Notes: generated by a model from the sequence alone, not told the origin. A DNA stretch of 48,431 nucleotides from a phage (GCA_012646845.1 GCA_012646845.1_4707.1); one strand, 5' to 3'. Positions 1,505-36,935 are shown, counted from the stretch's first letter. Numbers and translations are program-made.

Positions 1505-1542
1505 CCCCTCCCCCTGGCAGAAGCCGGAGGGAGGGGTGGGGT
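1505..1542. terminator. GC-rich hairpin between convergent genes (CCCCTCCC...GGGAGGGG) followed by T-rich tract on plus strand
   Basis: inverted repeat read directly; T-run 1543-1560. Confidence 0.5.
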
Positions 1543-1998
1543 TTATGTGTTTTTAATTTTGGATTCGTCAATATACTTGGTGTCGTAGGACATATGCTGA
1601 ATTAATTTTCTAGGCTTGATGAAAATACGACACGTGATAAACACATCAGGATCGTATTGTTTCACGCAACGTTCGAAGGCTTGTTTTGCGGCTTGACGCA
1701 TCGATGTTATCTCCCGATCGTCCATCGCATTATCGAATTCGATGTTGATCGTGATTTTATCGGGAAATAAATAGATAGAGTAATCGCTACCAATATCGCC
1801 GTCGTCAAAACGATAATCGTTGTGGTAGTGGTGGAGTTTACCTTCGTGTTCTGTCTGATACCACCCGACGATACTATCAAGACCCATACCCAGGCGTCCG
1901 AATGCTTGGTTAATAATATCTTCGACGACGGATGCGGGTGTGGGACCATTGAACAATCTATCCAGACGTTTTTTCATCGATTCTATTTTCACGGTCAT
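1543..1998 (-). CDS. hypothetical protein, member of a 3-gene tandem paralogue family
   Basis: ORF track; start moved to internal ATG with AGGAA SD; C-terminal half alignable with the next two genes. Confidence 0.6.
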   Translation of the reverse strand: MTVKIESMKKRLDRLFNGPTPASVVEDIINQAFGRLGMGLDSIVGWYQTEHEGKLHHYHNDYRFDDGDIGSDYSIYLFPDKITINIEFDNAMDDREITSMRQAAKQAFERCVKQYDPDVFITCRIFIKPRKLIQHMSYDTKYIDESKIKNT

Positions 1999-2029
1999 CG
2001 TTTCTGTTCCTGTTATAGTCAACATATAG

Positions 2030-2060
2030 CCCTTCCCCGGCCTTGGTGGCTAGGGAAGGG
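2030..2060 (-). terminator. hairpin CCCTTCCC/GGGAAGGG downstream of gene 2076..2540
   Basis: perfect 8-bp inverted repeat; no strong U-tract. Confidence 0.4.
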
Positions 2061-2075
2061 TATGTTTACGGGTGA

Positions 2076-2540
2076 TTACTCTTTGGTGTTAGTTTCTTCT
2101 TCGTTTGGAGAATACTCCACGGTGTGGAATACACAGCCATCGACAAACTTGAGGGTTACGGTAATAGGGAAATCACACGGCATAGCAGACTTCTTAAATG
2201 CGTTTGAGGCAGCTTCAGACAACTGGAGTGCGGCATTAGTCACGCTTGTGTTGAATGGTAGTGTTATGTCGATAAGGATGCGGTGTTTGTAAACATGGAA
2301 GACAACGGTACTGTCAACATCTATACCACGAAACCGCATTGTCGGAATGTTCGTCACGATGGAATAGTATATCCCATCAATATCACTACTTCCCATCGAC
2401 CATTCATCATTTACGCATAGATTTTTCTTAAGGAATTCGAGGCTTCGAGTGACAGCCACGGCAGTAGGCGTGATGTAAGCGTCTTTATGCGTGTCGAAAA
2501 GTCTGTTGACGTTAGATTTGAATGAGTATTCTGCTGTCAT
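2076..2540 (-). CDS. hypothetical protein, tandem paralogue family
   Basis: ORF track; GAGGT SD before ATG; C-terminus DFPITVTLKFVDG...YSPNEEETN aligns with DMPVILTINGHDG...YDPDNENTEE of next gene. Confidence 0.65.
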   Translation of the reverse strand: MTAEYSFKSNVNRLFDTHKDAYITPTAVAVTRSLEFLKKNLCVNDEWSMGSSDIDGIYYSIVTNIPTMRFRGIDVDSTVVFHVYKHRILIDITLPFNTSVTNAALQLSEAASNAFKKSAMPCDFPITVTLKFVDGCVFHTVEYSPNEEETNTKE

Positions 2541-2606
2541 TATTCTACCTCAATGTTTAACCGACACGTGTCCCCACTTAACAAGGGACACGATATCGTT
2601 GATTAA

Positions 2607-3101
2607 TTATTCTTCTGTGTTTTCATTGTCAGGATCGTAGTGGAATTCGAACAGCCCTGAACCGTCATGTCCGTTGATTGTGAGTATAACGGGCATATCG
2701 AATCCTCGGACACGCGAATGAAAACACTGTGCTAATTTTAGTTTGGCGTATGCCGCTATTTCATTGACAGCAATACACGATTCACCTGTTATACTCAGTA
2801 TAACGTCGATACTAACAATGTTGTCGTGCAACGCAAAACGCCAACGATCGATACGAGTATTATCTTTAGCGGGTGTCTCGTTGACGAGATAGACTTTATC
2901 GTCAACTGACAAAGCAGGGCTCCAGCAACGTTCGTTTATTAAATTCGCTTGGAGTTTTAGTATCGTCTGATCGATAATATCCCAACACGTAACCAGCGTG
3001 GTGTCAGGCACTGAACAGAGAAGGGCGAGCACTTTATCCTTTATTTTAAGTGCTTCCGCAGAGCGTCCGCAAATACCATGCATTTCAACCTTCTTATCCA
3101 T
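2607..3101 (-). CDS. hypothetical protein, tandem paralogue family
   Basis: ORF track; start set to ATG at 3101 preceded by AGAGGTGA; paralogous to 2076..2540. Confidence 0.65.
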   Translation of the reverse strand: MDKKVEMHGICGRSAEALKIKDKVLALLCSVPDTTLVTCWDIIDQTILKLQANLINERCWSPALSVDDKVYLVNETPAKDNTRIDRWRFALHDNIVSIDVILSITGESCIAVNEIAAYAKLKLAQCFHSRVRGFDMPVILTINGHDGSGLFEFHYDPDNENTEE

Positions 3102-3126
3102 ATTCACCTCTTTTTTAATCTAAATG

Positions 3127-3495
3127 TTAGTTGGGGTAGGATACTACTTGTTTACCATTTGGTGTATGCAGGATTACCGCTACCTCCAAAACGCGTTGTA
3201 CTGCACGTTCACGTATTTCATCGTAAATAAATAGTTTATGCGAAAAGTCTGCTGGTGTACTGACAACCGCATTGACTTCCACTCTATTCTCTACGTGGCG
3301 TACAACGATATGCTTCACGGGCCCTTCTTTAAGTGTAAGGCAATGCTCGGTAGTAAAACACCGATACTTGGGGCTCCATCTGTCGATATGTTCAAAGATA
3401 ATGGTGGCGATTTCTTTAGCGTCTTTTCTTGATCGTCTGAAATATCTATCAGTCCTATCAAGCATCGTGTTAGCGAGTTTAAAAGCCTTCTTCAT
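3127..3495 (-). CDS. hypothetical protein
   Basis: ORF track; AAGAGGGAGAT upstream of ATG. Confidence 0.6.
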   Translation of the reverse strand: MKKAFKLANTMLDRTDRYFRRSRKDAKEIATIIFEHIDRWSPKYRCFTTEHCLTLKEGPVKHIVVRHVENRVEVNAVVSTPADFSHKLFIYDEIRERAVQRVLEVAVILHTPNGKQVVSYPN

Positions 3496-3525
3496 ATCTC
3501 CCTCTTCTTAGCTACTTTAGGATGA

Positions 3526-4128
3526 TCACATGCTTTCTAGCATATTGACGATCATGGAACCCATACCGAAACTCGGTCTTTCACCGATGTACTCAGCAAG
3601 CTGGCGATGGACGTCTTTTGGATTTCCTTCTTCACCATCGGCGTCGATGTAAACCGAAAAAGAAAATGAATCGGAATCCACGCTGATAACCAGACGACGC
3701 TCATTGCGTTCCTTGAGTGTGTCGACAATAGCTGCTTTCAGTACCGCGATCGCGTTCATCGCGTGCAAGATATCCCCATCGGGTTTCGGCAGATCGATCT
3801 TTTCTTTCAGATCGATATTGATGTTGGTTACAATTGGGTTGAGGTCGACCTTGACATAATCGTTAGGGTACATGCGAATAATCGCACGATCGATATCTGA
3901 ACCGTAAAAGTCAACACGTGGCTTTAACACTTCTTTGTTTGGATCCATGTTTTCATCCATACCCGCCTGTAGAAAGCGTTCTACGTTATCCAGTTCACGA
4001 TAGATTGACGCTTCGATTTCTTTCAGATAGTTGGCTGCGGTTTCATGTTCTTTACGCAGCTCGTCTTTAAGGAGCTGTACGGTGGTTTCACTGGAACGAA
4101 TGCTGTTTGCGAATTGGGTAATTGACAT
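3526..4128 (-). CDS. hypothetical protein
   Basis: ORF track (TTG start at 4158); preferred ATG at 4128 with AAGGAA SD. Confidence 0.6.
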   Translation of the reverse strand: MSITQFANSIRSSETTVQLLKDELRKEHETAANYLKEIEASIYRELDNVERFLQAGMDENMDPNKEVLKPRVDFYGSDIDRAIIRMYPNDYVKVDLNPIVTNINIDLKEKIDLPKPDGDILHAMNAIAVLKAAIVDTLKERNERRLVISVDSDSFSFSVYIDADGEEGNPKDVHRQLAEYIGERPSFGMGSMIVNMLESM

Positions 4129-4176
4129 ATCGAATTCCTTAAATTCTCTTGAGTTCAATTAATGATGAAAAGCTGT

Positions 4177-4201
4177 AAAAAAGGGTGGGGCGAACCCCAC
4201 C
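4177..4201 (-). terminator. intrinsic terminator-like hairpin GGTGGGG-CGAA-CCCCACC followed by U-run on minus strand
   Basis: perfect 7-bp stem, tetraloop, A-run 4177-4182 on plus strand. Confidence 0.6.
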
Positions 4202-4226
4202 AAAACGTCAGACACACGCAGGAAAA

Positions 4227-4649
4227 TTAATTCAGTGACGTGTACAACGCATAACGACTATAGATCTCAACCGCTGGTCCGTTATGCGTTAACAGACCAT
4301 CTCGGTTGTAGTATTGGAAAAATGAATAACGTTTGTCGAAGTGATAAACGAAAGCAATGTCTTTGTCAAGACCTGTGATGCGCGGTCTGTTTTTATCTAG
4401 CAATGCTTTGACTTTTAACAGTGTTGCCGCACGTGCTTTAACATTAGGGATTAATCCATCACAGTCGATATAAACCGTGTAACCTGTTTCAGATGTTGCG
4501 ACGGTTGTATTGCGATTGATGCGGAAGATTTTTGTTTTGTATGTATCATCTTCAAGAATTGGGTTTTGTTTTTCGTATTTTCGTTTACGCAGAAATTCTA
4601 CAACGGTAATATAGTTAGCGGTGATATGTCCGGTTATAGCTTGTAACAT
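4227..4649 (-). CDS. hypothetical protein
   Basis: ORF track; conserved leader with AAGAGGA SD immediately upstream. Confidence 0.65.
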   Translation of the reverse strand: MLQAITGHITANYITVVEFLRKRKYEKQNPILEDDTYKTKIFRINRNTTVATSETGYTVYIDCDGLIPNVKARAATLLKVKALLDKNRPRITGLDKDIAFVYHFDKRYSFFQYYNRDGLLTHNGPAVEIYSRYALYTSLN

Positions 4650-4795
4650 CTTGACATCCTCTTATATTGGATTGATTACAGTTATCTTAAATAGGCGATA
4701 AGATATCTTGCTCTTATCACCTAGGTTGCGTTTTGTTAATAACAAAACGCATCGCCTTAGTGACCTATGTCACTAAGGTAATATAGCCGTGAAAT
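4650..4795 (-). promoter_or_regulatory. conserved promoter/leader element copy A: CTATATTAC motif, two inserted hairpins, conserved 28-nt RBS leader
   Basis: 4650-4677 and 4777-4794 are identical to 32967-32994 and 33039-33056; copy A carries an extra ~51 nt (4726-4776) forming two perfect hairpins. Confidence 0.45.
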
Positions 4796-4830
4796 AGACT
4801 GCGTTAACAAGAAATAAAACAGCATAAAAC

Positions 4831-4870
4831 CTCCTCCCCCATCCTTCAAGAGGACGGTGGGAAGAGGGAG
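4831..4870 (-). terminator. pyrimidine/purine-arm hairpin downstream of gene 4876..5277
   Basis: CCTCCTCCCCC...GGTGGGAAGAGGGAG imperfect inverted repeat (pairs with G-U in minus-strand RNA). Confidence 0.35.
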
Positions 4871-4875
4871 AGAGA

Positions 4876-5277
4876 TTAAATGTCGTGGACGGCATTGCCG
4901 TTTAACCAGCAATACAGCTTAACGCGACACGGATACCGCTTCGTTGCAGCAACCATTTCACCGCGTAAACGCTGGTAGATTTCATCCTGGTGTTCACGTT
5001 CAATGGGGTAATCAGCCCAGCATTCGATCATGACGTCACCATTAGTCAGAATCGTCGTACGCATCCTGTCCTGGACTCGACGATCTTTCCCGGCATTAGG
5101 GAAATACATCCCTTCAGTACGAATAAGGTCGCCACAGGGCATGACTAACCACTCATTCGTTTTGCCGGTATTCTTATAATCCATTACAGCTTGCATTGCG
5201 GTGTCAACGCTAAAAGAAACATAATTCCAAACGGGGGTCCAACGATAGATTGCGGGTTGTTCAAGTGTTTCGTTCAT
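4876..5277 (-). CDS. hypothetical protein
   Basis: ORF track; AGGAAA SD. Confidence 0.6.
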   Translation of the reverse strand: MNETLEQPAIYRWTPVWNYVSFSVDTAMQAVMDYKNTGKTNEWLVMPCGDLIRTEGMYFPNAGKDRRVQDRMRTTILTNGDVMIECWADYPIEREHQDEIYQRLRGEMVAATKRYPCRVKLYCWLNGNAVHDI

Positions 5278-5491
5278 GAGGCGCTTTTCCTATTTTTATT
5301 TTCTGCACAGGATAAATTCAACGGCATAAAGCCCTTCCCTGCCCTTATATGGGGCGGGAAGAGTTTATGACCGCAATGAGAATCTCTCACGACAAGCTCA
5401 CGACGATTATCGCATCACCCCGCGAGTGAGGGAGATCAGGATCACCTCCTACGTCGTAACGACAGTAATCCCGTTAACGTCGCCTTAGGCA

Positions 5492-6130
5492 TTATGCGAA
5501 GCGACGCATGTAACCTGCCAGATAGTTACGTGTATCGAAGTAAGCAATTTCAGGAATTGCGATATTAAGGTCGATAGCACGGATTTCAACTTGGCGACGG
5601 CTTTCATCATAGATCGCATCCATCAGACGCAGTACTGTCAGGAAAGCCATGCGGGTATGGTAGTCCAGCGGCATGTTGTCGATACCGCGATACAGATAAC
5701 GGTTTGCGTTAAATGCCCCTTCGCGGTTATCTTTCCAGATCTTCAGAATATCAGCAAAGGCGGTGCGGAAAACCTCAGGATTATCCACATCCAGTAACGC
5801 ACGGAAAGCAGACATTAAAGACCGCTGATGACGGATCAACGACTGCGGCGTTTGCGGCATGGTCGGACCCATTTCTTCAGCATATTTTTGGAACGGGGCA
5901 ACCAGGGTTGCGGCACGAGAAGCAACGATAGAAATAGCAGAGGATTCATTCACCGCTGGTTTCGCAGGCTTTTCTTCAACGGCGGTTTCCTTCTTCTCGA
6001 CAGCGACCGTTTCCGGTTGTGCTACAACGTTGCTGGTCGAAGCAGCAGCCACACCATTTTCCACGGTGGTCTCTACTGCTGTAATCTTTTCTTCCACTTG
6101 TGCGGAACGTTGGTCTTTATTCTTGCTCAT
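5492..6130 (-). CDS. hypothetical protein (acidic, low-complexity N-terminus)
   Basis: ORF track; AAAGGAAA SD. Confidence 0.6.
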   Translation of the reverse strand: MSKNKDQRSAQVEEKITAVETTVENGVAAASTSNVVAQPETVAVEKKETAVEEKPAKPAVNESSAISIVASRAATLVAPFQKYAEEMGPTMPQTPQSLIRHQRSLMSAFRALLDVDNPEVFRTAFADILKIWKDNREGAFNANRYLYRGIDNMPLDYHTRMAFLTVLRLMDAIYDESRRQVEIRAIDLNIAIPEIAYFDTRNYLAGYMRRFA

Positions 6131-6155
6131 GTCTATTTCCTTTCATTTAACAAGG

Positions 6156-7457
6156 TTAACTAATATAAAGTTCAGGATCGTAAGGCGCTAACGATACACT
6201 GGCGTTATGCATTGCTTTCATCATAGTGTTCATGAAAACGTTGTTTACACCGGTGATCTCTGCCCCGATCGCGTCTGGGGTTGGAGCCATCGCGTTACCG
6301 CAACAGGTAGCACAGTATTCCAACGGACCCGCTTTACAGCGCTGAGGATCACGTAACTTGATGGTTTGTCCTTCCAAGGAAGCGAATAATTCAGCATCAA
6401 TAAGTTTAAGCGCTGCGCCATCGATCATGTAACGGCCGACGAGCAGTTTATCTTTGATGTGGTCGCGGTTTACCGTGAACAGAATATGTTCTTGGGTACC
6501 GCAGTCGTCCATCGTGATCTTAAGGTTCTGTGTTGCACGTTGCGATTCTTTAGCCGTTTGTCCAGCTAAAGCGGTCAACGCACCACGCGAGAACGAACCA
6601 GCACGTGCACTGTTGTTGTACTCCGCCCAATGGTCGACGCGCATCCCTTCGGCCAGGCTGTGCGTGATAACGTTACGTTTACCAGGGTCAACGAAGTCGG
6701 CTTCAACCCCCATCATGATGTGTGTTTTCTTTCGAGTATTACCGAAACTCTTACCGGGGTTAATATAGAACCCTTCCGATTCATCGCCCTTAAAGGATTC
6801 CTTATCCATTTTGGTTAGCGTGGCTTCGAGTTTGATCAGTTCTTCAGGCGTAAACTTACCTTCCTCTTGCAAGCGCGCTAACTCTTTATCACGATAGGCA
6901 ATAATATCATCATCGACCGTTAACGCTTTATCGCTCATTGAAGGCACAATTAAGCGGTTAATGGCGGTTAATGCGCTGATATTGTTGGTGAATTTCTTCA
7001 CCTCGCTTGCGTACAGTGGACCAATCGGACGTTCGTTAGGATCGGGTATTCCCTCTTCGGGATCATCTGCTACGCGCGGTGCAATCAGTGATTCTAGTGT
7101 ACCGCTGGTTAACCGTCCTGCCTGATATTCAATCTGAATACCGAAAGCGTCATAAAGGACGTACATATTGAACAACGCTTCACCGAAGGTTGTGGTGGTT
7201 GTGTTCTTAACCGACGGTAGATCGCCAGGCGCAAGCTCCAACGGATCCCAGAAATTCAACAAGGGTTTTGTTGGTTCTGTTTCCCATTGGTGTTCTTCAC
7301 CGTCGATGGTAACCGTAACGATGTTACCTTGACGACGTAATTTAGGCTGATACTTCTCAGCGCCGCCTTCCGTAAAAGCAAATGCGTCGTTAATCCACTC
7401 AAGATAACGGTAGTGCCCTTCACGCAACGCGTAAAGGAAATAATCACGAGGTGTCAT
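6156..7457 (-). CDS. multisubunit RNA polymerase beta-prime-like subunit, C-terminal fragment
   Basis: ITMDDCGTQEHI matches bacterial beta-prime VTEDDCGTHEGI; downstream C-x2-C-x-G (CATCCGN) and AIGAE segments at the spacing seen in RpoC; AAGGAG SD. Confidence 0.6.
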   Translation of the reverse strand: MTPRDYFLYALREGHYRYLEWINDAFAFTEGGAEKYQPKLRRQGNIVTVTIDGEEHQWETEPTKPLLNFWDPLELAPGDLPSVKNTTTTTFGEALFNMYVLYDAFGIQIEYQAGRLTSGTLESLIAPRVADDPEEGIPDPNERPIGPLYASEVKKFTNNISALTAINRLIVPSMSDKALTVDDDIIAYRDKELARLQEEGKFTPEELIKLEATLTKMDKESFKGDESEGFYINPGKSFGNTRKKTHIMMGVEADFVDPGKRNVITHSLAEGMRVDHWAEYNNSARAGSFSRGALTALAGQTAKESQRATQNLKITMDDCGTQEHILFTVNRDHIKDKLLVGRYMIDGAALKLIDAELFASLEGQTIKLRDPQRCKAGPLEYCATCCGNAMAPTPDAIGAEITGVNNVFMNTMMKAMHNASVSLAPYDPELYIS

Positions 7458-7470
7458 GTAACAACTCCTT

Positions 7471-8343
7471 TTAAACGTGGGTCAGGTCACCGTGACGTGA
7501 AACGAACTCTGATAACGCTCGAGTTGCTTCTTTGGATTCTTCAGCCATCGGGAAGTTTGTGGTAACAAGTTCTCGTAGGACAGGAATGATTTCGTTATCT
7601 TCAAGATCGGAAGCCAACGCGAATGCGATCAGTTCTTGGGTGTACGCATACGGCTGCTGACGTAATGCGGCAAGCTGATTCCGACACTGCGACATTAGCA
7701 GGTCCAGTGGAACCGCTATCGTACCCCCTTCATCAATATACTGACCGAATACCGGTGGGAACGCATCGCTGATTACACGAATTCGTCGACGGATGCGATC
7801 AGGAATCTGGACGTTTTCTTCATCAGCGATATTTTCGCTGTCTTTCTCCAGCTTCTTGGTTAACACCTGCTGGATACGTGGGAGCAGGCTTGAATGCACG
7901 AAACTGATTAATGATGCTACGCCCGCAGCATCGACACCGTAAATATAATGCACGCATTCCGCTAGCGCTTCAGCTGTGGTGTAGTCTTCATCTTCAACGA
8001 TGGCGAGTAGAAAAGCGGTATCGTCATGTGTTTCCAGGTCTAATAACGTAGACGCTAACGCATGAAGATACTTCAGGCTATCCAGGGATAGTTGTCCTTC
8101 GTTAATCCGTATCCCGAAGGCAAGCAATTGTTGTTTATAAAGTTCGATACACCCGTTTGTTAAAATGACATCTAATTCGTTTAAATCGTATTGTTCCCCA
8201 GCACCTGACAACATCGTACTACAAAACGTTTCCAGTTGCTCGCATTTAAAATCTTGGTATAAACGATACATGCAGTGCTGTAACAGCGTACGCCTTGTTT
8301 CAGGGATCTTACCTTCTAACAAAGCCAAGACGGAATCAATCAT
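7471..8343 (-). CDS. hypothetical protein
   Basis: ORF track; ATG at 8343 preferred over GTG at 8349. Confidence 0.55.
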   Translation of the reverse strand: MIDSVLALLEGKIPETRRTLLQHCMYRLYQDFKCEQLETFCSTMLSGAGEQYDLNELDVILTNGCIELYKQQLLAFGIRINEGQLSLDSLKYLHALASTLLDLETHDDTAFLLAIVEDEDYTTAEALAECVHYIYGVDAAGVASLISFVHSSLLPRIQQVLTKKLEKDSENIADEENVQIPDRIRRRIRVISDAFPPVFGQYIDEGGTIAVPLDLLMSQCRNQLAALRQQPYAYTQELIAFALASDLEDNEIIPVLRELVTTNFPMAEESKEATRALSEFVSRHGDLTHV

Positions 8344-8439
8344 ATCCACTCCGATGCGGTAAATGTCTACTAGCTCTCATAATCTATTGAAGAAACTACC
8401 AGCTTACGCCAACTTAGATTAATCAGGAGTAACCATCCC

Positions 8440-8913
8440 ATGCCAGTTTCATCCAAACCAAGAAAAAAATCCGTAGGGAACCCTAAAGCTCAGGAAACAA
8501 CAGCGATTCGTTGGGACGAGTTACGTGAACCTATCGAAAACTGCGAATTGTTATTAGGTACCCTGGGTGCAGCTATTTACCAAGCGACGCAACCCTGTCG
8601 TTTACGATTAACCCAAAACAAACGTGATGAGTTCGTTGCGTTATCAACGAGCACGAATAAAGATCTGACCGAACTTCAAACCGAGTTGACGACGATCAAG
8701 AACTCCATTACGCCGATGTACGGTAAAGAAGTTGATGAACAAAGTATTCTGTTACAGTACAACTACGGGATGTCGTTAATGAACATCCTGGAACGCGCAT
8801 CCGATATTCTGCGTCCTGACGTTGCACGCCTAAGCCAACTGCGTGTCGAAGGGATGGAGAACCAGATCCGATTCGCTAACAGTGTTAAATCTCAAGGAGC
8901 CACCGAAGCATGA
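8440..8913 (+). CDS. hypothetical protein
   Basis: ORF track; ATG at 8440, stop overlaps next start (ATGA). Confidence 0.6.
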   Translation: MPVSSKPRKKSVGNPKAQETTAIRWDELREPIENCELLLGTLGAAIYQATQPCRLRLTQNKRDEFVALSTSTNKDLTELQTELTTIKNSITPMYGKEVDEQSILLQYNYGMSLMNILERASDILRPDVARLSQLRVEGMENQIRFANSVKSQGATEA

Positions 8914-10568
8914 GCGAACAAGAAAAAGAAGTCGTGACGAATCAGGAAGCCACCGAACGTTCAGAGTCGTCCGTTGAAACTACGATTCCGGCAAGTGAGG
9001 GTAAAGACGAAGCTGTCACTACCGAAGGAGATGTAGCGGCTCCAGAAGCAACCCGTGAAGAAGAACCCTCACATCCACCGCTGGTTGATTTCTCGAAGGC
9101 GACGATACGTTTCCAATGCGAAGACATTCGTCCTAAGAGCCCAAAGAAAACAAAACGTCAGCCATTGGTGTTACCGCTGTATTCTCCGCGTGTACAGACA
9201 GCGTATTACAAGGAATACATCAACGAAGCAATGGATACCGTACAAGCCATTGTCGCTCAACGCGGTAAACCTTCGGACGAGCAATTTGATAAATTCAGTA
9301 AAGCGGTAGTGCAATCGGTTGCTGATGGGCAATACCAACCGCGTGGGCCAGCTCATGATCGTGCGTTGGAACGTAAGGGCAGTCAGTGGACTAACGTACC
9401 CGTAGACTCATCGGGTGTTGGTCGTGTTATTCCTGGCATCCCGCAACCGAACCATATTCCTGATGATGTCGAAGCGCCGTTGACAGGAACCGATGCAATC
9501 TATTTTGCTATCCGTAATACGAAATCAGGTGCGCCTGCTGTAATGCCGTTATGGCATAGCGGTATTAAGCTGCAGTTCAATCCACCGTCAAATGAACGTG
9601 TCGCAATTATGCATGAACGTATTGCACGCGATAAAATCCTGGGTGGACGTGATAGTACCGGTTTCCTGTTTTCGGCAACCTCGATTATCACCATGAAACA
9701 TGCTATCGAATTAGCGTTAGAATGCTGTTACATGGCCAACGTACCGAACCTGGATATCCAGCGTTTGAAAGACATTATTCCGGTTACCGATGTTCCAGCA
9801 CTGTTGTTGAACGTGCTGGTAACCATGTACCCGTACGGGTATCCTTACGTGCAGACCTGCTATCAGAATCCAGAAACCTGCGACTATCGTGTTGAAGATA
9901 CCGTAAGCTTTGCGAAGCTCTATCAAGTTGACAACAGTGCGATTACCAAACGTATGCGACAGATCATGACCGAAGGTCCGGTCATGACCGATGAACTTTT
10001 GCGTGAGTATGCAAACGAACTGGGTGAAACAAACTCCCGTACGCTGGATCTGTCTGACAACGGTTCGGTTATCATTGAGCTTGAAGTACCGAAGATCTCA
10101 CGTCAGATTGCCATGGGCGAACGCTGGTTAAGCGATACGCTGGAAGATCTGCGTGATATTCTATCGCGTCCGTCAATGACTGAAGAAGAGCGTGATCGTG
10201 TTATTCGTGAACGTCAGTTCTATAGCTGGATGCGTCAGTATGATGCATGGATCAAATCGATGCATGTGTCGGTAAACGGTACCATGCGTCGTGTGAGCGA
10301 TGCGGATACGGCAACGGTATTAGCACAGCTGTCTCGTGACAGCGACCTTCGTGAACGCTATATCGATGGGTTGATGCAATTCATCGGCGATTCGACGATT
10401 GCGCTCGCGGCAATGCCTGCCTGGAAATGTCCGAAATGTAATACCGATATTGCTGACAATCTGCGTGACCAGAAATACTACGATCTGATTGCTTTGGATG
10501 TACCCCAGCTTTTTTTTACCCTAAACTCCGTCCAATCTCTTCAGGAGGGGATGGACGCGGTATTCTAA
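8910..10568 (+). CDS. hypothetical protein, 552 aa, acidic low-complexity N-terminus
   Basis: ORF track; AAGGAG SD; no motif recognised with confidence. Confidence 0.65.
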   Translation: MSEQEKEVVTNQEATERSESSVETTIPASEGKDEAVTTEGDVAAPEATREEEPSHPPLVDFSKATIRFQCEDIRPKSPKKTKRQPLVLPLYSPRVQTAYYKEYINEAMDTVQAIVAQRGKPSDEQFDKFSKAVVQSVADGQYQPRGPAHDRALERKGSQWTNVPVDSSGVGRVIPGIPQPNHIPDDVEAPLTGTDAIYFAIRNTKSGAPAVMPLWHSGIKLQFNPPSNERVAIMHERIARDKILGGRDSTGFLFSATSIITMKHAIELALECCYMANVPNLDIQRLKDIIPVTDVPALLLNVLVTMYPYGYPYVQTCYQNPETCDYRVEDTVSFAKLYQVDNSAITKRMRQIMTEGPVMTDELLREYANELGETNSRTLDLSDNGSVIIELEVPKISRQIAMGERWLSDTLEDLRDILSRPSMTEEERDRVIRERQFYSWMRQYDAWIKSMHVSVNGTMRRVSDADTATVLAQLSRDSDLRERYIDGLMQFIGDSTIALAAMPAWKCPKCNTDIADNLRDQKYYDLIALDVPQLFFTLNSVQSLQEGMDAVF

Positions 10569-10630
10569 TCGATCCGCGATACGGGTTACACGACGGGCAA
10601 CTTGTTCGTAATGATGAAAAAATCTGGGAA

Positions 10631-10990
10631 TTGCTATTAGCGCGTAAAGGCGACGGTGGCATGAAACTGAACATCGAAATGGGTATTGCGTACGATACCA
10701 TGTTTGGCTTGTACGATCGCGTCAGCGACTGGACGCCGTTGAAATGGGTTGCTCAGCATCCCGCTGAAGATCCCTGGGACAGATTAGGAATTAAACCCTT
10801 AATCGAAGATTATGTCCGATTCGGTATTAAAGAGTTCATGACGCTGGATGCGTTTTTACAAGCACCGTATCCTTACGCGCAAACGGTACTCAAAATCGCA
10901 CAAGACGAACTGCGGAAACGTAGTGCGGTACTGGACGACGATGAGGACAAGTTACGACGAGAAGAAGAACGTTTACGAAACGGAAAATAA
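10631..10990 (+). CDS. hypothetical protein (start uncertain: TTG 10631 or ATG 10661)
   Basis: ORF track; frame open upstream into previous gene. Confidence 0.4.
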   Translation: MLLARKGDGGMKLNIEMGIAYDTMFGLYDRVSDWTPLKWVAQHPAEDPWDRLGIKPLIEDYVRFGIKEFMTLDAFLQAPYPYAQTVLKIAQDELRKRSAVLDDDEDKLRREEERLRNGK

Positions 10991-10991
10991 A

Positions 10992-11501
10992 ATGGCGAGA
11001 TTTACCAGTTTGATTGGGTTGGATATTTGGGAAACACCGGCCGACGTTCGGGTTATTCCTGTTAACACCGTCGGTGTGATGGGACGTGGTCTTGCCAAGC
11101 AGGCAGCCGATCGTGTGCCCGGTCTTCTTGAAGCGTACCGTAAGCAATGTCAAGATGGGTTTAAGGTGGGCGAAGTCGTGTCGTATCAACACGGTGATAA
11201 CGATCAACTCACCTACGTGCTGTTTCCATCAAAATCGGATTGGCGTGAAAGAACACGACGCGAGTATATCGTTAACGGTTTACTGGCGTTGAAAGCGTGG
11301 TTATTGGAGCTTCAGTTCGAAAGAGACGGCTTCTCATACCACCGTCCGGCTGAACCGTTGATTGTCGCAATTCCTCCGGTTGGTTCTGGTTGCGGTAATA
11401 TCGGTTACGGACAATCCGAAACAATCCAGCCTCAGTGGGTACGCGCACAAATCAAACAGTATCTTGCCACCGTACCGAACGTTCATTTCTACTTGTTCTA
11501 A
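10992..11501 (+). CDS. macro-domain protein (ADP-ribose binding/hydrolase family)
   Basis: VIPVNTVGVMGRGLAKQ and IVAIPPVGSGCGNIGYG resemble the two conserved macro-domain glycine-rich loops; ATG at 10992 in ORF-track frame. Confidence 0.65.
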   Translation: MARFTSLIGLDIWETPADVRVIPVNTVGVMGRGLAKQAADRVPGLLEAYRKQCQDGFKVGEVVSYQHGDNDQLTYVLFPSKSDWRERTRREYIVNGLLALKAWLLELQFERDGFSYHRPAEPLIVAIPPVGSGCGNIGYGQSETIQPQWVRAQIKQYLATVPNVHFYLF

Positions 11502-11517
11502 TGCAGCGGTAACATAA

Positions 11518-11549
11518 CCCTCCTCCAACCCGTAAGGGAAGGAGGAGGG
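11518..11549. terminator. hairpin CCCTCCTCC...GGAGGAGGG with nested CCC-GTAA-GGG, between convergent genes
   Basis: perfect 9-bp inverted repeat read directly. Confidence 0.5.
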
Positions 11550-11566
11550 CTTATGCTGTTATGCTA

Positions 11567-11941
11567 TTAATGTTCGTTCCAGACGGCATCTTCCGGTGGA
11601 ACAATAGGATCTTTCTTCGGCATTGACGGCACTTCATGACGATGTTTACGGAACTGTCCGTCGATAACTTCACGAAGCCGGTACGCATCAACCCACGTTG
11701 ATTTATTGAACAGCTCCAACGTCACAGTTAATCGCGTTCTTGACATTGAATAGCTTTTCTTTGCAATCAAATCGGGATAATTCAGTTGAGCGAACCATGC
11801 CCGTATTTGTGCTTCGGTAAAAGCGATGCTGTAATAACTAAGTTTACCGTCATTAAAATCGTGCGCGTGGGTGTAACGTCCAGCGTAACGCCAAACAAGA
11901 TGCACATTCAGATCTATCCATGGTGGGGTGGTATCAGCCAT
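11567..11941 (-). CDS. hypothetical protein
   Basis: ORF track; GAGGGT SD. Confidence 0.6.
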   Translation of the reverse strand: MADTTPPWIDLNVHLVWRYAGRYTHAHDFNDGKLSYYSIAFTEAQIRAWFAQLNYPDLIAKKSYSMSRTRLTVTLELFNKSTWVDAYRLREVIDGQFRKHRHEVPSMPKKDPIVPPEDAVWNEH

Positions 11942-11950
11942 GCGTTACCC

Positions 11951-12520
11951 TCAACGATTCTTCATCACTTTACCCAGGCTTTCGATATTATCCCAAAAGC
12001 GATTTTTACTTGGCGCATCGCCAACGATAACCGACATCAAATCGCGACGTTCACGACTGATGATGCCCTGCGATTTCCAGATCACCATCGTCCAGCAAGC
12101 AGCCAGAACAAACAGATGGTTAATACTCGGTTTGGTTTGTGCGATGAACGCAAGCCATGCCCAGATACCGGTGTATACTACCGTCACTAAAAAGAGAGAG
12201 ATTGTTGCAACGACAACAACGAAGTTTTGGATGGCTGGCTGATTGGCGTTATCCTGAAAAGCGGTAAGATCAGGAAGATTACCTTCAACGGAACTCGTAT
12301 CATCGATTTCCAATTCTTCGATTTCTTTTCGTATGTCGGGAGCTAATCCGGCATCATCAAGATGCTTCTTTAACCGCTGAATACTTAATCGTTGTCCGAC
12401 AGGGATATTAATGTTGTCGTAACTATTAAGCGCATCAACCAGGGAGCGTCCGTCAACGAGAACCAAGCTCGCAGTACCCATCGTCTGCGGTTTTATTTTG
12501 TAAAGGTCTTTTACTTTCAT
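11951..12520 (-). CDS. hypothetical membrane protein
   Basis: ORF track; hydrophobic segments (VVVVATISLFLVTVVYTGIWAWLAFI). Confidence 0.6.
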   Translation of the reverse strand: MKVKDLYKIKPQTMGTASLVLVDGRSLVDALNSYDNINIPVGQRLSIQRLKKHLDDAGLAPDIRKEIEELEIDDTSSVEGNLPDLTAFQDNANQPAIQNFVVVVATISLFLVTVVYTGIWAWLAFIAQTKPSINHLFVLAACWTMVIWKSQGIISRERRDLMSVIVGDAPSKNRFWDNIESLGKVMKNR

Positions 12521-12541
12521 GTAGACACCACCTCCAACGTG

Positions 12542-15154: not shown

Positions 15155-15176
15155 TGAAAACCTCAGCCCTTTAGAA

Positions 15177-23635: not shown

Positions 23636-23652
23636 AAGCACTCCAAAGTTCA

Positions 23653-23669: not shown

Positions 23670-23675
23670 CGTTGG

Positions 23676-28175: not shown

Positions 28176-28230
28176 AAAAAAAAAAACAAAAATAGGAAAA
28201 CGGTGCTCATCCTTTTAGGGATGAGCACCG
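28176..28230 (-). terminator. canonical intrinsic terminator: 12-bp perfect stem followed by long U-tract on minus strand
   Basis: CGGTGCTCATCC-TTTTAG-GGATGAGCACCG with A-run 28176-28200 on plus strand. Confidence 0.75.
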
Positions 28231-28250
28231 CGTACCATTATATCGAATGA

Positions 28251-29575: not shown

Positions 29576-29751
29576 TTTCTATTCCTCAAACAAAAAGATT
29601 GTCTTTTACGCGACATGATTACAAGTACACAGGTTACTGAATTTCTGTAAAAGTTAATTTTCGTAAACTAAAAGAAAATGTATCCGTGTTTCCTGGTTCT
29701 TCCCCTCCACAGCCTCAGGAAGAGAAGAACCGTTTGCTAAGTTGTTATGTA

Positions 29752-30000: not shown

Positions 30001-30054
30001 GGTGATTTCCTTCTTTATTAGGATGATTACATTTAGTCAGTTTGACAGCATAAA

Positions 30055-30079
30055 CCCTTCCCGCTTTATGCAGGAAGGG
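30055..30079 (-). terminator. hairpin CCCTTCC...GGAAGGG downstream of hydrolase gene
   Basis: inverted repeat read directly. Confidence 0.4.
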
Positions 30080-30093
30080 CATACGGATTTGTT

Positions 30094-31378: not shown

Positions 31379-31551
31379 AAACTTCTCCTTACTTTCTCTG
31401 ATAAAGCGACGATTCTAATTTTAGAAACATCCCTAATGCGAATGCGAGTAATGACGCACGTACCCACATACCTCCTTGAAAACTGTTGTACAACATAAAG
31501 ACCAGAGCGATGCCGCCCATATGCAGGCGGCACTTATCGAACAGTGTTGGT

Positions 31552-32609: not shown

Positions 32610-32642
32610 AATAAAAACGGTATAAAGCCCCCATTTAGGGGG
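32610..32642 (-). terminator. hairpin CCCCC-ATTTA-GGGGG followed by U-rich tract on minus strand
   Basis: read directly; lies just downstream of 32649..32966. Confidence 0.5.
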
Positions 32643-32648
32643 ACCTGA

Positions 32649-32966
32649 TTAGTTTGCACTTAAGAAATGACCCAGAACCGTTACGATTGGAAACAGTCCC
32701 GTAACCGTATTATCGCCCGAAAACATCATCTTTGAGTCGTTAACGGTGATGAAACGGATGTCGGTTGCAGACCCATCGATAGCGACAAAACGCATCGAGT
32801 TCGGTGGAAGATCCTCAACAACTTCCACGAGATGTTCACGATTTTCAAAGGCTTCTTTAACACGACGCATGAAACGAATCAATGTTCCTTCAGCGTCGGC
32901 TTCCAAATGACCTAGGATATCGCGATTATTACGAATAGCGAATACAGCCATTTTAAACATACACAT
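32649..32966 (-). CDS. hypothetical protein
   Basis: ORF track; conserved leader identical to that of 4227..4649. Confidence 0.6.
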   Translation of the reverse strand: MCMFKMAVFAIRNNRDILGHLEADAEGTLIRFMRRVKEAFENREHLVEVVEDLPPNSMRFVAIDGSATDIRFITVNDSKMMFSGDNTVTGLFPIVTVLGHFLSAN

Positions 32967-33056
32967 CTTGACATCCTCTTATATTGGATTGATTGCTAAT
33001 AATTCAAGGTGAAGCCAATGACTCCATTGCTTCACCTAGGTAATATAGCCGTGAAA
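32967..33056 (-). promoter_or_regulatory. conserved promoter/leader element copy B (CTATATTAC motif, hairpin, conserved RBS leader)
   Basis: 32967-32994 and 33039-33056 identical to copy A; motif overlaps stop codon of 33036..34028. Confidence 0.45.
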
Positions 33057-34028
33057 ATTAATGCATTGACTCACGTCTTTGCTACATGGGGGCTGAATCT
33101 CGTCGATGCGTTTAACCACAACCTCAGGGAAAAGTTGGAGGATTTCATCAGGTGGTGTCGTACCTTCTGTCCAACGATAACGTTCAACCTTTTCGATGCG
33201 TGGACTCCCTCCGACGTCAGCGATACGAAAGATACAGGCGATACCTAAATCGAAACATACGCTGTAAATATCTTCCGTGCCTCCTTTATCGGCAAGTATT
33301 TTCGCAAAATGCTCGTTATCGGGAAGAATGGCTAAATTACGGATACACCAAACATTATCACCCATTTCTTCAAGTTTTGGGTAGGTTAAAGTGTGCCCGT
33401 AGCATGTTAACCATCGATGATTTTCTAGGCGGAAGTCCTTATCTCCTGGCCGATAACCCAGTATCACCTCGGTGTAGAAGAGATTAGGCATATTGAGCAG
33501 TTCTCTAATCGTTGGACCGGTATGCTCCCAGAGACAGATTTGTTTACGGTCTATATCGTAATCTGTGACGTTACTCACCTCCCAACTTATCGTAAGTTCA
33601 TCGACAACGTGCCAACCTAAAGCATGTTCACCACCAAGCAGATTAACAATAGCTGCTATCTCGTGCTTGTCAAATACCCCCAAATTCTGCGGTGGTTGCA
33701 TCGTACGTAATGGCTCCCATAACGCACTGTAATCATAGAGCAAATGACGACATAAACTTTTTGTTAGGGGGGTATGTTCAGTAAACAGTGGAAGAATCAC
33801 CGTATCCAACAATGGACGTAATGGATGATTGTCGGGTGGCAACGAAGCGTATAGCCGACTTTCCTTTTTAGGAATGTCGTAACCAAACCCGTAACGCTCC
33901 GAAATGAGTGCAATCAACACTTTTGCTATGCGATTACGTAGCATGCGATGGATATCATCAGTGTAACAGAATTTCGGTCTGTTACCACAAACGAAGGTGA
34001 AGTATCTGGGCGTTAGCGCAGCCATCAT
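33036..34028 (-). CDS. hypothetical protein
   Basis: ORF track; GAGGGAAAG SD. Confidence 0.6.
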   Translation of the reverse strand: MMAALTPRYFTFVCGNRPKFCYTDDIHRMLRNRIAKVLIALISERYGFGYDIPKKESRLYASLPPDNHPLRPLLDTVILPLFTEHTPLTKSLCRHLLYDYSALWEPLRTMQPPQNLGVFDKHEIAAIVNLLGGEHALGWHVVDELTISWEVSNVTDYDIDRKQICLWEHTGPTIRELLNMPNLFYTEVILGYRPGDKDFRLENHRWLTCYGHTLTYPKLEEMGDNVWCIRNLAILPDNEHFAKILADKGGTEDIYSVCFDLGIACIFRIADVGGSPRIEKVERYRWTEGTTPPDEILQLFPEVVVKRIDEIQPPCSKDVSQCINFHGYIT

Positions 34029-34901: not shown

Positions 34902-35500
34902 TACTTAGGCTCCAGAATCGGACCGAACAACCAGAAAGTCAGACGCTGATAGATCTGTTCGATGACGGCGGATTCTGTTTGCTCTTCCCACGATTTCCCT
35001 TTCTTATACTTTATTTCTGGCGGAACATCGCCAGCGTAAACGTACCCCGTTGAGAAGTCCCACGCCAGCCGTTTACCGAAAGCGGGTAAGAACACCTCTT
35101 CGAATCTGAACGCTTTCGAATTCCAATGCAGCAATTGATCGGATTCAACATGTAAAGTTTTATTACGTTTGCTTGGCATGTTTCCGAAGTACTGAACGAT
35201 GGCTGACTTCATAACCCGATCAGCGAAGTCCTTGGCTTCAGCCTCATCGAGGGGTGGTAGATGATGCGACAGATTTAGCTTGCGTTGTTCGATATCGATC
35301 TTACGCATTGCTTTAATTAAATCGCCAGGGGTAATTTTACCCTTATGTCCTTCCTGTCGGTGTATGAAACACCCCTGGAATAATACGCAAAGCTCTTGAG
35401 GTGCGGTACTTTCCATTCGTCCGTAAGCAACAATCACCGATCGACGACGATCGATAACATCACGGATAAACCGCGGCTCAGTAATACTCACCACTGTCAT
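34901..35500 (-). CDS. hypothetical protein
   Basis: ORF track; AAGAGGG SD. Confidence 0.6.
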   Translation of the reverse strand: MTVVSITEPRFIRDVIDRRRSVIVAYGRMESTAPQELCVLFQGCFIHRQEGHKGKITPGDLIKAMRKIDIEQRKLNLSHHLPPLDEAEAKDFADRVMKSAIVQYFGNMPSKRNKTLHVESDQLLHWNSKAFRFEEVFLPAFGKRLAWDFSTGYVYAGDVPPEIKYKKGKSWEEQTESAVIEQIYQRLTFWLFGPILEPK

Positions 35501-35544
35501 TTAAAGCCCTCTTTATCTTTTTCCATTTCTCTTTACATAACCAC

Positions 35545-36231
35545 TTAAGACGTCGCCATCTTATCTTCCAGAGACTTCTTCGGTAAACCATGGATAACTC
35601 CTTCCGGGGTTAAGAACACACAGTCTGGATTCTGCGTTCGTGAGCGGTCGTCTGGACTATTCAATGAAAACAGCAACGCAGAAATACCTTTCGTCCGATT
35701 TAATGCCGCTACGATCACATCAAGCTGTCGCAGCGCATCCGACACCGTTCGATGAGGAACAATACGTGACTGTTTGAAGCTGGCTAACCGCCAAGTCTCG
35801 AACAAACAACGTAGTTTAAACACGTCGGACGGAATAGCGGTAGATCCCTGTTCGATAACCTCAACACGATCAGCTTCAGGATAACCTACAGCAACCGCAC
35901 TAAAGTGTCTTACCCCATTATGAAAATCGTCGATAGATGCTTCGGCGTATTTACATACCGTGCCAGAAACGACCATCACTTTTGCTAAACCGCGATAATT
36001 GATCGTCAACGGAATACGAAATACACGTAAAGCATGTTCCGGATTTAATGAGACGTCGTTAACCTTCGTTGCGGTCAGCTTACCACGCTCGTAACGTGCG
36101 GTGAACGGTAGCCCGTCATAAACGGGATTGATTACAACGCCCCCTGGGGAGGCGTTAGCGTTAAGATGGACATTAAGCCAATCGGATACTTCCTGTCTAC
36201 TAGTTACGATTAACATAAAACGGTCCTCCAT
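35545..36231 (-). CDS. hypothetical protein
   Basis: ORF track; start set to ATG 36231 with AAAGGAAAAG SD. Confidence 0.55.
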   Translation of the reverse strand: MEDRFMLIVTSRQEVSDWLNVHLNANASPGGVVINPVYDGLPFTARYERGKLTATKVNDVSLNPEHALRVFRIPLTINYRGLAKVMVVSGTVCKYAEASIDDFHNGVRHFSAVAVGYPEADRVEVIEQGSTAIPSDVFKLRCLFETWRLASFKQSRIVPHRTVSDALRQLDVIVAALNRTKGISALLFSLNSPDDRSRTQNPDCVFLTPEGVIHGLPKKSLEDKMATS

Positions 36232-36241
36232 TTCTTTTCCT

Positions 36242-36892
36242 TTATTCATGACGCATATCTTCCAAATCATCCCTTTGTTTTGTAAATTCTGATTGCTTGC
36301 GATAAACCGTCCACGAATCGTATATGCCGTGAAAGTTCAAATGACGTGCATTTAAGTTAACGGTGAATTCTTCCACAGAGGAGAAATCCGAACGAAGCAT
36401 CGAATGGAAGGCGTCATCTCCGGTGCAGCCCCCGTATCCCTCACCCTGATAGATCAAAAGCTGATGTGGTTGAATACGCGCGGCAACCAACGCAGCTTGT
36501 GGTTTGTCGTAAGGTGGCCACGACAGTAAAATAACATCGTACTGTGAAAGATCGATGTTCGTATAGTCGACCTGTTGAATGTCCTCGATAAACGGGTGGG
36601 GATGTAATTCCATATCGTAAGCGGTAATGTCCTCAACACCGAGTTTACGCAGGACGTAAGTCAGGTAACCTGTCCCACAACCCAAGTCAGCGACGCGTCG
36701 CCCGTAACAGATGTTCGCTAACTGGAGCGCGGTATCCATGGTTAACAACGACCAACCAATGTGTTGTGTATATTCTTCACGCACACTCCATTGTTGATGG
36801 TACGTCATGGGTTCTATGATACTAGCAAGCTGCTGGTACGGCAGCGGCATTTTGGTTTCGCCTTGCGTGAGTAAAGCAATAACATCGTTCAT
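36242..36892 (-). CDS. class I SAM-dependent amino-methyltransferase (motif I DLGCGTG, motif IV SWPPY); possible DNA N6-A/N4-C methyltransferase
   Basis: VADLGCGTGYLT and ILLSWPPYD; AAGGAAACAAA SD before ATG 36892. Confidence 0.65.
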   Translation of the reverse strand: MNDVIALLTQGETKMPLPYQQLASIIEPMTYHQQWSVREEYTQHIGWSLLTMDTALQLANICYGRRVADLGCGTGYLTYVLRKLGVEDITAYDMELHPHPFIEDIQQVDYTNIDLSQYDVILLSWPPYDKPQAALVAARIQPHQLLIYQGEGYGGCTGDDAFHSMLRSDFSSVEEFTVNLNARHLNFHGIYDSWTVYRKQSEFTKQRDDLEDMRHE

Positions 36893-36916
36893 TTTGTTTC
36901 CTTTTATCGGCATAAG

Positions 36917-36935
36917 CCCTCCCATGTTGGGAGGG
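36917..36935 (-). terminator. hairpin CCCTCCC-ATGTT-GGGAGGG
   Basis: perfect 7-bp inverted repeat just downstream of 36941..37366 and upstream of methyltransferase RBS. Confidence 0.4.

Follow-up and report, generated by a model that had tools for sequence, protein, structure and literature searches.

In the jumbo phage phiKZ, 61 terminator regions mapped by ONT-cappable-seq share the motif BCCYCCCCHWWDGGGRRGGBYTTATKYYGT, a stem-loop followed by a TTAT region, and terminators with this motif were classed as "intrinsic" on the basis of ARNold prediction (Putzeys 2024, PMC10914365). A motif "strongly resembling" that of phiKZ was found among the 132 terminators of phage 201phi2-1, and eight selected members worked when placed in a terminator trap in Pseudomonas chlororaphis cells free of phage, where only the host polymerase is at work (PMC11512511). 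Here, we analyzed a phage DNA stretch of 48,431 nucleotides (nt) (GCA_012646845.1; hereafter, the window), in which G+C-rich intergenic hairpins are followed immediately 3', on the transcribed strand, by a conserved tail, (Y)TTATGC(Y)G(T), that had been overlooked in an initial annotation of the hairpins. Hairpin and tail together very probably terminate transcription and belong to the terminator type that is conserved among nucleus-forming jumbo phages related to phiKZ. The kind has been known since 2024, and what is described here is a new member of it in an E. coli phage lineage, with three modest additions: as judged from the sequences compared, the invariant core of the tail is TATG(Y)(Y)G rather than TTAT, the feature shared across genera appears to be the tail and not the composition of the arms, and hairpin plus tail come close to being a signature of jumbo-phage contigs.

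The window is phiKZ-like jumbo phage DNA. A 12-kb slice of it is ~93% identical to Escherichia phage vB_EcoM_Goslar (Goslar), a 237-kb E. coli jumbo phage of the genus Goslarvirus and a phiKZ-like chimallivirus, and the Goslar proteins gp069 to gp135 map onto the window collinearly. The gene at 6156-7457 (gp078) is homologous to the phiKZ gp80-type RNA polymerase subunit, with homologues in 308 jumbo-phage records. Because of the identity and collinearity with Goslar and the presence of a gp80-type subunit, we take the phage to be a phiKZ-like, nucleus-forming chimallivirus with its own multisubunit RNA polymerases. The gene model, built from Goslar homology and open reading frames (ORFs), comprises 66 genes, nearly all of them on the minus strand, and intergenic DNA totals 3.9 kb. 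In the matching stretch, the Goslar GenBank record labels two putative terminators, the equivalents of the hairpins at 4184 and 11518.

Coding-strand hairpins with a folding energy (dG) of -12 kcal/mol or lower had a density of 5.39 per kb between genes (3.9 kb in total) but only 0.40 per kb within coding DNA, a 13-fold enrichment (binomial p = 1.6e-13). All 11 hairpins listed in the initial annotation (eight of the CCCTCCC/GGGAGGG type and three called canonical) were found again, and the folding energies of the named elements lay 3 to 8 standard deviations below those of dinucleotide shuffles, with the exception of the hairpin at 32622 (z = -1.6). The statement that nearly every gene is followed by a hairpin was too broad: with gaps counted at 15 nt or more and gap hairpins at dG <= -9, a hairpin follows 24 of the 66 genes, only 36 of which have a downstream gap, so that 24 of 36 gaps are occupied. 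The block of overlapping genes at 37-48 kb is almost without hairpins. The preference for pyrimidine-rich 5' arms, which had been read as phage-specific, is real: in 12 intergenic hairpins, pyrimidines make up 70% or more of the 5' arm, and in three they make up 30% or less (p = 0.035). The asymmetry is independent of strand because the 5' arm of an inverted repeat reads alike whichever strand is taken; however, the more informative conserved part is the tail. An Rfam search of the whole window returned no family at gathering score.

The conserved tail is found at 2030, 4836, 5336, 11518 (both strands), 21837, 30049, 36917, and 43034. Seven of the eight intergenic occurrences of TTATGC in the window lie directly after a hairpin, and the eighth lies within the loop of the 30055-30079 hairpin. 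At tandem same-direction junctions, the tail is on the coding strand in every case (7/7), and both convergent junctions (11518 and 1505) carry it on both strands, the minus-strand copy at 1505 being degenerate. On the mRNA strand, the elements consist of a G+C-rich stem of 7-14 bp with a CCYCCC-like 5' arm (of the CCCTCCC or CCCTTCC type) and a GGRRGG-like 3' arm, closed by a loop of 3-12 nt; the ten core members have a minimum free energy (MFE) of -14 to -29 kcal/mol and z of -3.2 to -6.1, and TATG begins +1 to +4 after the stem. A scan of the window for the 3' half of the phiKZ consensus with three mismatches or fewer gave 12 matches against 1.9 expected, a number reached by none of 100 shuffles; one match is exact (30045-30062) and three have a single mismatch. 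Since hairpin and tail match the mapped phiKZ motif, the listed hairpins can be regarded as the probable Goslar-lineage version of this known, mapped jumbo-phage terminator. The candidate elements, together with the other hairpins of the window that follow genes, are as follows:

1483-1551, both strands, bidirectional terminator at the convergent junction between DNA polymerase exon 2 (+, with its stop at ~1458-1460) and gp071 (-, stop 1543-1545); hairpin 1505-1536, MFE -28.4, z -4.0; tail GGGG-TTTATGTGTT (TTTATGTG) on the + strand and a degenerate CTTCGCATGCGTTTTC on the - strand; consensus match at 1534-1551 (+) with 3 mismatches.
2018-2060, - strand, phiKZ-type terminator after gp072; hairpin 2030-2060, CCCTTCCC...GGGGAAGGG, tail CTATATGTTGAC; reads GGGAAGGG-CTATATGTTG; z -4.4.
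4177-4201, - strand, canonical intrinsic terminator after gp075; GGTGGGG-TTCG-CCCCACC then CTTTTTT; purine-rich 5' arm; a putative terminator in the Goslar record.
4819-4870, - strand, phiKZ-type terminator after gp076; long pyrimidine-rich/purine-rich hairpin; reads GGAGGAGG-TTTTATGCTGT; 1 mismatch; MFE -28.4.
5321-5363, - strand, phiKZ-type terminator in the gp077-gp076 gap, absent from the earlier list; hairpin 5332-5363; reads GGGAAGGG-CTTTATGCCGT; 1 mismatch; z -3.6; TTTATG on the opposite strand too; identical in Goslar.
11507-11559, both strands, bidirectional phiKZ-type terminator between the convergent genes gp083 (+) and gp084 (-); hairpin 11518-11549; tails CTTATGCTGT (+) and TTATGTTACCG (-); z -6.1.
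16633-16695, - strand, hairpin after gp088 with the degenerate tail GGGGAGCTGTTATGGCGT; 3 mismatches; z -3.2; loop core in common with the 11518 hairpin; adjoins the start of gene x2.
21825-21868, - strand, phiKZ-type terminator after gene x3; hairpin 21837-21868; reads GGGG-TAATATGCGCGG; z -5.1.
28176-28231, - strand, canonical intrinsic terminator after gp094; 13-bp stem, then a long U-rich run; z -8.4.
29695-29731, - strand, G+C-rich hairpin of uncertain class after gp097; pyrimidine-rich 5' arm, followed by neither TATG nor a U-run; z -3.8; unchanged in Goslar.
30045-30080, - strand, phiKZ-type terminator after the endolysin gene gp098; GCCCTTCCTGC-ATAAA-GCGGGAAGGG then TTTATGCTGT; stem-tail junction at 30049 reads GGGAAGGG-TTTATGCTGT; 3'-half consensus with 0 mismatches; z -5.5.
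31490-31533, - strand, hairpin after gp102, an atypical member or a non-member; hairpin 31510-31533; TTTATGTTGT only 12 nt downstream.
32610-32643, - strand, short hairpin after gp105; CCCCC-TAAAT-GGGGG with the variant tail CTTTATACCGTTTTTATTT; 3 mismatches; weak, z -1.6.
36907-36935, - strand, phiKZ-type terminator after gp112; CCCTCCC-AACAT-GGGAGGG then CTTATGCCGA; reads GGGAGGG-CTTATGCCG; z -4.0; tail ATG is the annotated gp111 start; only the loop differs from Goslar.
43022-43069, - strand, phiKZ-type terminator after gp123, absent from the earlier list; hairpin 43034-43069; tail TTATGCCGATGT; reads GGGCG-TTATGCCG; z -3.7.
45820-45838, - strand, hairpin after gp129 without the canonical tail; CCCCGTC-TTAAT-GGCGGGG; z -4.0.

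The junction at 1505 is counted as convergent because the window at 1200-1457 (+) encodes the C-terminal end of a DNA polymerase. The hairpins at 11518-11549 and 16654-16695 have a common core of ~20 nt, TTCCCTTACGGGTTGG(G)AGGA, in opposite genomic orientations, with the cross-match also present in Goslar, and it appears that a terminator can be copied from one site to another.

The elements of the window resemble the phiKZ motif in the pyrimidine-rich CCYCCC 5' arm, the GGRRGG 3' arm, and the tail YTTATKYYGT, as well as in their placement after genes, their bidirectional use between convergent genes, and their occurrence in a nucleus-forming phage with its own multisubunit RNA polymerases. 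They differ in that the host is E. coli and the genus Goslarvirus, that they are known from sequence while the phiKZ terminators are known from transcript ends, that their loops, at 5-14 nt, are longer and more variable than the 4-nt consensus, and that many of their stems contain an additional, inner helix. Where the tail of the phiKZ motif has K (G or T), nearly all window copies have G. Motif A and the A/B combination of 201phi2-1 are also alike, with a hairpin followed by TTTATG(C/T)(C/T)GTT just past stop codons and with members that terminate in vivo; in that phage, however, five motif classes are described and the stems are mostly of the GCCCC/GGGGC type rather than CCCTCCC.

Canonical Rho-independent terminators likewise have a G+C-rich hairpin near the 3' end, downstream of which lies a weak rU:dA hybrid, and they can act in both directions if the sequence ahead of the hairpin is complementary to the tail. 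In contrast, the phiKZ-type elements have their U-run reduced to 2-4 U followed by a fixed AUGCYG, short of five to six U or more within 8 nt of the stem, and their arm polarity is reversed relative to the canonical examples in the window and in T4, where 5' arms are purine-rich. Thus, the description of the hairpins as often lacking a U-tract holds for a long U-run, although the 2-4 U of the tail do form a short, interrupted U-tract of fixed sequence. Two of the three hairpins that had been given a canonical U-run (4177-4201 and 28176-28231) are plain canonical intrinsic terminators, whereas the third (32610-32642) bears a variant phiKZ-type tail, CTTTATACCGT. A canonical terminator consensus scan over positions 1-20000 had its sole match at 4184-4201, and 28176-28231 has a U-run too. 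A mechanistic analogy, not a shared membership, may be drawn with the class II termination signal of phage T7 (ATCTGTT), which is sequence-specific and does not need a hairpin: in both cases, pausing or termination would be aided by a short, conserved stretch that the phage polymerase reads, but the T7 RNA polymerase is single-subunit, whereas here the polymerase is multisubunit and a hairpin is always present.

At such an element, the polymerase would transcribe the stem, and the nascent hairpin would form while the RNA 3' end lies in the weak UUAU hybrid ~5-8 nt downstream, with release of the transcript in the manner of an intrinsic terminator; in place of the usual U-run, there would be the fixed tail (Y)TTATGC(Y)G(T). 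The elements would close transcription units just past stop codons, and at convergent junctions, one palindrome with a tail per strand would stop transcription from both directions. We infer that transcripts of the present phage end at these elements. Rho and other host factors are presumably kept out of the phage nucleus. By analogy with phiKZ, whose infection is resistant to rifampicin, an inhibitor of the host RNA polymerase (PMC4666361), the enzymes stopped are presumably the phage's own multisubunit RNA polymerases. The initial annotation had proposed phage-specific termination rather than host intrinsic termination, and the phiKZ and 201phi2-1 motifs and the distribution described below bear out a lineage-typical signal; however, the contrast with host intrinsic terminators was drawn too strongly. 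Since the 201phi2-1 terminators work with the host polymerase, these elements are best described as a lineage-specific flavor of the intrinsic-type terminator and not as signals that the host polymerase ignores.

Seventeen intergenic hairpins of the window were aligned to their Goslar orthologues. This comparison was preferred to a covariance model, because stem and loop lengths are too variable for reliable MAFFT alignment and because instances chosen as hairpins would make covariation circular. Stems had changed at 3.5% of positions and loops at 15.7% (p = 2.8e-5), with 10% in the far flanks. Among ten changed base pairs, there were three compensatory double changes (two in the 11518 hairpin; the third, C-G to T-A, at 28200), four single changes that preserve pairing (for example, in the 21837 hairpin, where T-A became T-G), and three broken pairs, all three in hairpins that are not of the phiKZ type. 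Purifying selection therefore acts on pairing. At 2030 and 1505, the upstream sequence has diverged past alignment in Goslar while hairpin and tail are intact, and none of ten tail cores (TATG or TATA) had changed.

For the wider family, regions of ~40 kb around the homologous polymerase gene were taken from nine other jumbo phages, with a similar stretch of T4 as a control, and scanned for hairpins from the tail and from the stop codon; contiguous stems were required in both scans, which missed the elements at 4836, 5336, and 21837. In the window, SL2 (phiKZ-like), 201phi2-1, RAY, PCH45, and EL, the top 4-mer after post-stop stems was TATG (38/72), followed by TTAT (34/72), and TATG started one to four bases past the stem. 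In the SPN3US-like SPLA3, Asesino, Vibrio phage pVp-JHP1101, AR9, and T4, the top 4-mer was TTTT (26/51) and TATG was found after three of 51 (p = 1.7e-8). From 40 kb per phage, the family thus seems to be split into TATG-tail and U-tail lineages. A permutation control for the 5-mer TTATG was only moderately clean, since overlapping permutations, GTTTA and GTTAT among them, draw their scores from sites already counted for TTATG. Of 39 hairpin-plus-TTATG sites in seven chimallivirus loci, 38 lay within 70 nt (typically ~11 nt) downstream of the end of an ORF on the same strand, and none lay inside an ORF. Tails on both strands of convergent junctions were found in the window (11518 and 1505), SL2 (29935), 201phi2-1 (two sites), RAY (two), and PCH45 (one). 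Arm polarity is less conserved than the tail, as RAY has AGGAGAG...CTCTCCT, of opposite polarity, with the tail TTTATGCCG.

Exact scans of 2.9 million IMG/VR contigs for CCCTCCC-N3-12-GGGAGGG plus a tail gave a similar picture. With the YTTATG tail, 72 stretches were found, 59 of which lay on contigs of 170 kb or more, compared with 12 stretches, two on contigs of that size, for a scrambled tail; a U-run tail gave more than 120 stretches, nearly all of them on contigs of ordinary length, with one on a contig of at least 170 kb among the 80 listed (p = 4e-28). In 74 unique instances, the four bases after TTATG were Y, C, G, and T, and ~55-70% had the upstream flank CATAA(C/T)G, which extends the palindrome to CATAA(C/T)G-hairpin-C-TTATG. 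In a tblastn search with a panel of chimallivirus proteins, which covers ~40 kb per genome and is therefore weak, 17 of the 72 IMG/VR loci were matched. The combination of hairpin and tail is close to a signature of jumbo-phage contigs.

The identity of the tail core with a promoter element raises two further readings. Late promoters of phiKZ have the consensus TATG with transcription starting at the G, a motif that is required in vitro but insufficient alone (Yakunina 2015, PMC4666361), and in the non-virion polymerase of phiKZ, it is the beta-like subunit gp123 that binds the TATG of the non-template strand (PMC12809450). The tail contains a tetranucleotide identical to this late-promoter core (for the promoter, Yakunina 2015; de Martin Garrido 2024, 2026), and the core TATG(Y)(Y)G is invariant across Goslar-, phiKZ-, 201phi2-1-, RAY-, PCH45-, and EL-type phages. 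That the tail core is the tetranucleotide bound by gp123 suggests that the polymerase reads the tail to pause or terminate, and it is thus possible, though doubtful, that the tail is a sequence-specific signal read by the phage polymerase and not a degenerate U-tract. The pocket that holds the promoter TATG would then capture the TATG in the transcription bubble, and the enzyme would halt 5-7 nt beyond the hairpin in a promoter-like pause that takes the place of a long U-run. The elemental pause consensus of multisubunit polymerases is G(-10)...Y(-1)G(+1), which the G-rich 3' arm followed by U-G may resemble. Alternatively, the hairpin would end the upstream unit and the TATG would be a late promoter of the non-virion polymerase, restarting transcription at the G. 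The properties of phiKZ late promoters just described, the top rank of TATG after post-stop hairpins in six chimallivirus loci (38/72), and the leaders of 30-180 nt that several window elements have ahead of the next gene speak for such a cassette, but we consider it unlikely. With tails on both strands of convergent junctions in five phages, a promoter there would fire only antisense into the opposing gene; a start at G at 36917 would delete the annotated AUG; and p119L, a late promoter that has been studied in detail, is AT-rich upstream and lacks a GC hairpin, while the tail stands in the fixed context GG-Y-T-TATG-C-Y-G, whose positions after TATG (Y, C, G, and T) are not reported for late promoters. 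In addition, TATG alone does not suffice for promoter activity (PMC4666361).

Termination itself has been weighed against three readings in which the hairpins do something else. The initial annotation had offered RNA processing alongside termination. In such a reading, the polymerase would read through, and the hairpins would block 3' exonucleases or mark endonuclease cuts in the AU-rich tail. Stable 3' hairpins generally protect bacterial mRNA, as is textbook knowledge, and 3'-end sequencing alone cannot tell termination from trimming; nonetheless, we regard this as very unlikely, and no positive support for it was found. RNase III needs ~20 bp or more of double-stranded RNA, which the stems, with their 7-14 bp, do not provide, an exonuclease block would need no conserved sequence 3' of the stem, and the phiKZ Dip protein inhibits the RNase E degradosome, which also counts against processing. 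Moreover, the eight 201phi2-1 terminators cut downstream reporter expression in the uninfected host (PMC11512511). In a translational reading, GGGAGGG would serve as the Shine-Dalgarno sequence and the AUG of the tail as the start codon, with the CCCUCCC arm masking the ribosome-binding site of the next gene. The tail AUG at 36917 is indeed the annotated gp111 start, that at 2030 is in frame with gp071 (ORF 1543-2025), and the 16654 hairpin adjoins the start of x2. However, most tail AUGs open frames of merely 4-22 codons, two elements lie between convergent genes with no downstream gene to regulate, GGAGG stands only 4 nt ahead of the AUG, both gp111 and gp071 possess another in-frame AUG, 7-9 codons downstream and with its own AGGA-type site, and the G of ATG is only K (G or T) in phiKZ (PMC10914365), which together make translational control extremely improbable.

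It is just as hard to credit that the elements act as DNA palindromes, whether as sites of dimeric phage proteins, cruciforms, or REP-like mobile repeats spread through intergenic DNA, even though the flank-extended palindrome occurs in ~55-70% of the 74 IMG/VR instances and the 20-nt core shared in opposite orientation by the 11518 and 16654 elements means that elements can be copied. Stem sequences vary between sites and lineages yet remain complementary (for example, AGGAGAG/CTCTCCT in RAY), and orthologues show compensatory changes; therefore, selection is on pairing and not on a fixed protein half-site. The tail is also polar with gene direction (7/7 tandem junctions), and the elements sit just past stop codons. 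The paper on enhanced crosslinking and immunoprecipitation (eCLIP) of ChmC reports no binding motif.

Several observations nevertheless weigh against these elements being terminators, or against the tail being a general part of such terminators: (i) in the searched literature, no 3'-end mapping was found for the present phage or for Goslar-like phages, but only for phiKZ and 201phi2-1; (ii) the 3' ends detected by ONT-cappable-seq in phiKZ could themselves be processing or exonuclease-stop sites (PMC10914365); (iii) the tails at 1505 (- strand), 16654, and 31510 are degenerate; (iv) compared with Goslar, the full 12-nt tail does not evolve significantly more slowly than the flanks (7.4% versus 10%, p = 0.29); (v) SPLA3, Asesino, and Vibrio phage pVp-JHP1101 have U-rich post-stop tails in their 40-kb regions, and therefore the TATG tail is not universal in the family; and (vi) since phiKZ late promoters have TATG as their core as well, the tail may have a second function.

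The tail also has a bearing on gene starts. On the minus strand, GGGAGGG-CTT-ATG imitates a ribosome-binding site (36892-36916 and 1999-2025) and is used by the gp111 start at 36913 and by the start of the longest gp071 ORF at 2025. Such mimicry can pull annotated starts upstream, and N-termini may be over-extended in genomes of this kind. Masking of a Shine-Dalgarno sequence, which would call for a genuine start codon 5-10 nt past the purine-rich arm at most sites, was rejected after all junctions had been listed: only three of 13 sites adjoin a possible start, each of them poorly supported or with a better start downstream. At 23654-23670 (- strand), GGGGCGG-TTA-CCGCCCC takes up the 22 nt that separate the gp092 stop from the x3 ATG, where there is no room for a free ribosome-binding site, and the hairpin is retained in Goslar although x3 is missing there.

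Some features of the surrounding genes were also noted. Three genes have no Goslar counterpart: x1 (3127-3495), x2 (15925-16653), a paralogue of gp087 with 38% identity, and x3 (21881-23653), which encodes 590 amino acids with an N-terminal part resembling those of gp086, gp091, and gp093. Goslar gp070, gp096, gp100, and gp120 have no match in the window, and indels between the window and Goslar are bordered by the terminator hairpins at 16654 and 21837. The genes gp115 to gp119 (38338-40635, - strand) are tandem paralogues with mutual tblastn matches of 25-38% identity. A family-B DNA polymerase gene (1-1460, +) appears to be interrupted by a group I intron: Rfam Intron_gpI matches at 659-1179 with 46 bits (E = 4e-10), narrowly missing the gathering score of 50, and the match adjoins and slightly overlaps the 3' end of an HNH/NUMOD homing-endonuclease ORF at 1-723 (the Goslar gp069 equivalent). 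Exon 2 of the polymerase, at 1200-1457 (+), encodes its last ~85 residues (tblastn E = 5e-15 with SL2 and 5e-16 with RAY); the Goslar record shows an 819-nt "empty" gap at this place, and the exon is unannotated there.

Upstream of gp075 (4646-4808) and gp105 (32963-33070), on the minus strand, there is a common segment of 32 nt, 100% identical, which spans the start codon and the ribosome-binding site. About 100 nt further upstream of both, TTTCACGGCTATATTACCT(T)AG is found with a hairpin immediately after it. These shared segments look like a duplicated promoter or leader module, possibly with an early-type phage promoter. The 226-nt gap upstream of gp075 holds three more, AT-richer palindromes at 4680-4790, CCTTAGTGACATAGGTCACTAAGG, GCGTTTTGTTATTAACAAAACGC, and GGTGATAAGAGCAAGATATCTTATCGCC, which follow the terminator on its downstream side and may represent operators or structures of a leader.

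For annotation, the elements would show where transcription units end in a genome of the Goslar type, for which only two terminators are annotated in this stretch, and they are compact candidate insulators for engineering, some of them bidirectional. The link between the terminator tail and the promoter core is directly testable with the purified phiKZ enzyme. The hairpin-plus-TATG signal is found in phages of Escherichia, Pseudomonas, Erwinia, and Serratia and is nearly absent from ordinary phage contigs, and this jumbo-phage-biased distribution across hosts suggests that the signal tracks the lineage of the phage polymerase and not the host. If the tail is indeed read by sequence, this would explain both its confinement to one polymerase lineage and its absence in the relatives with U-rich tails.

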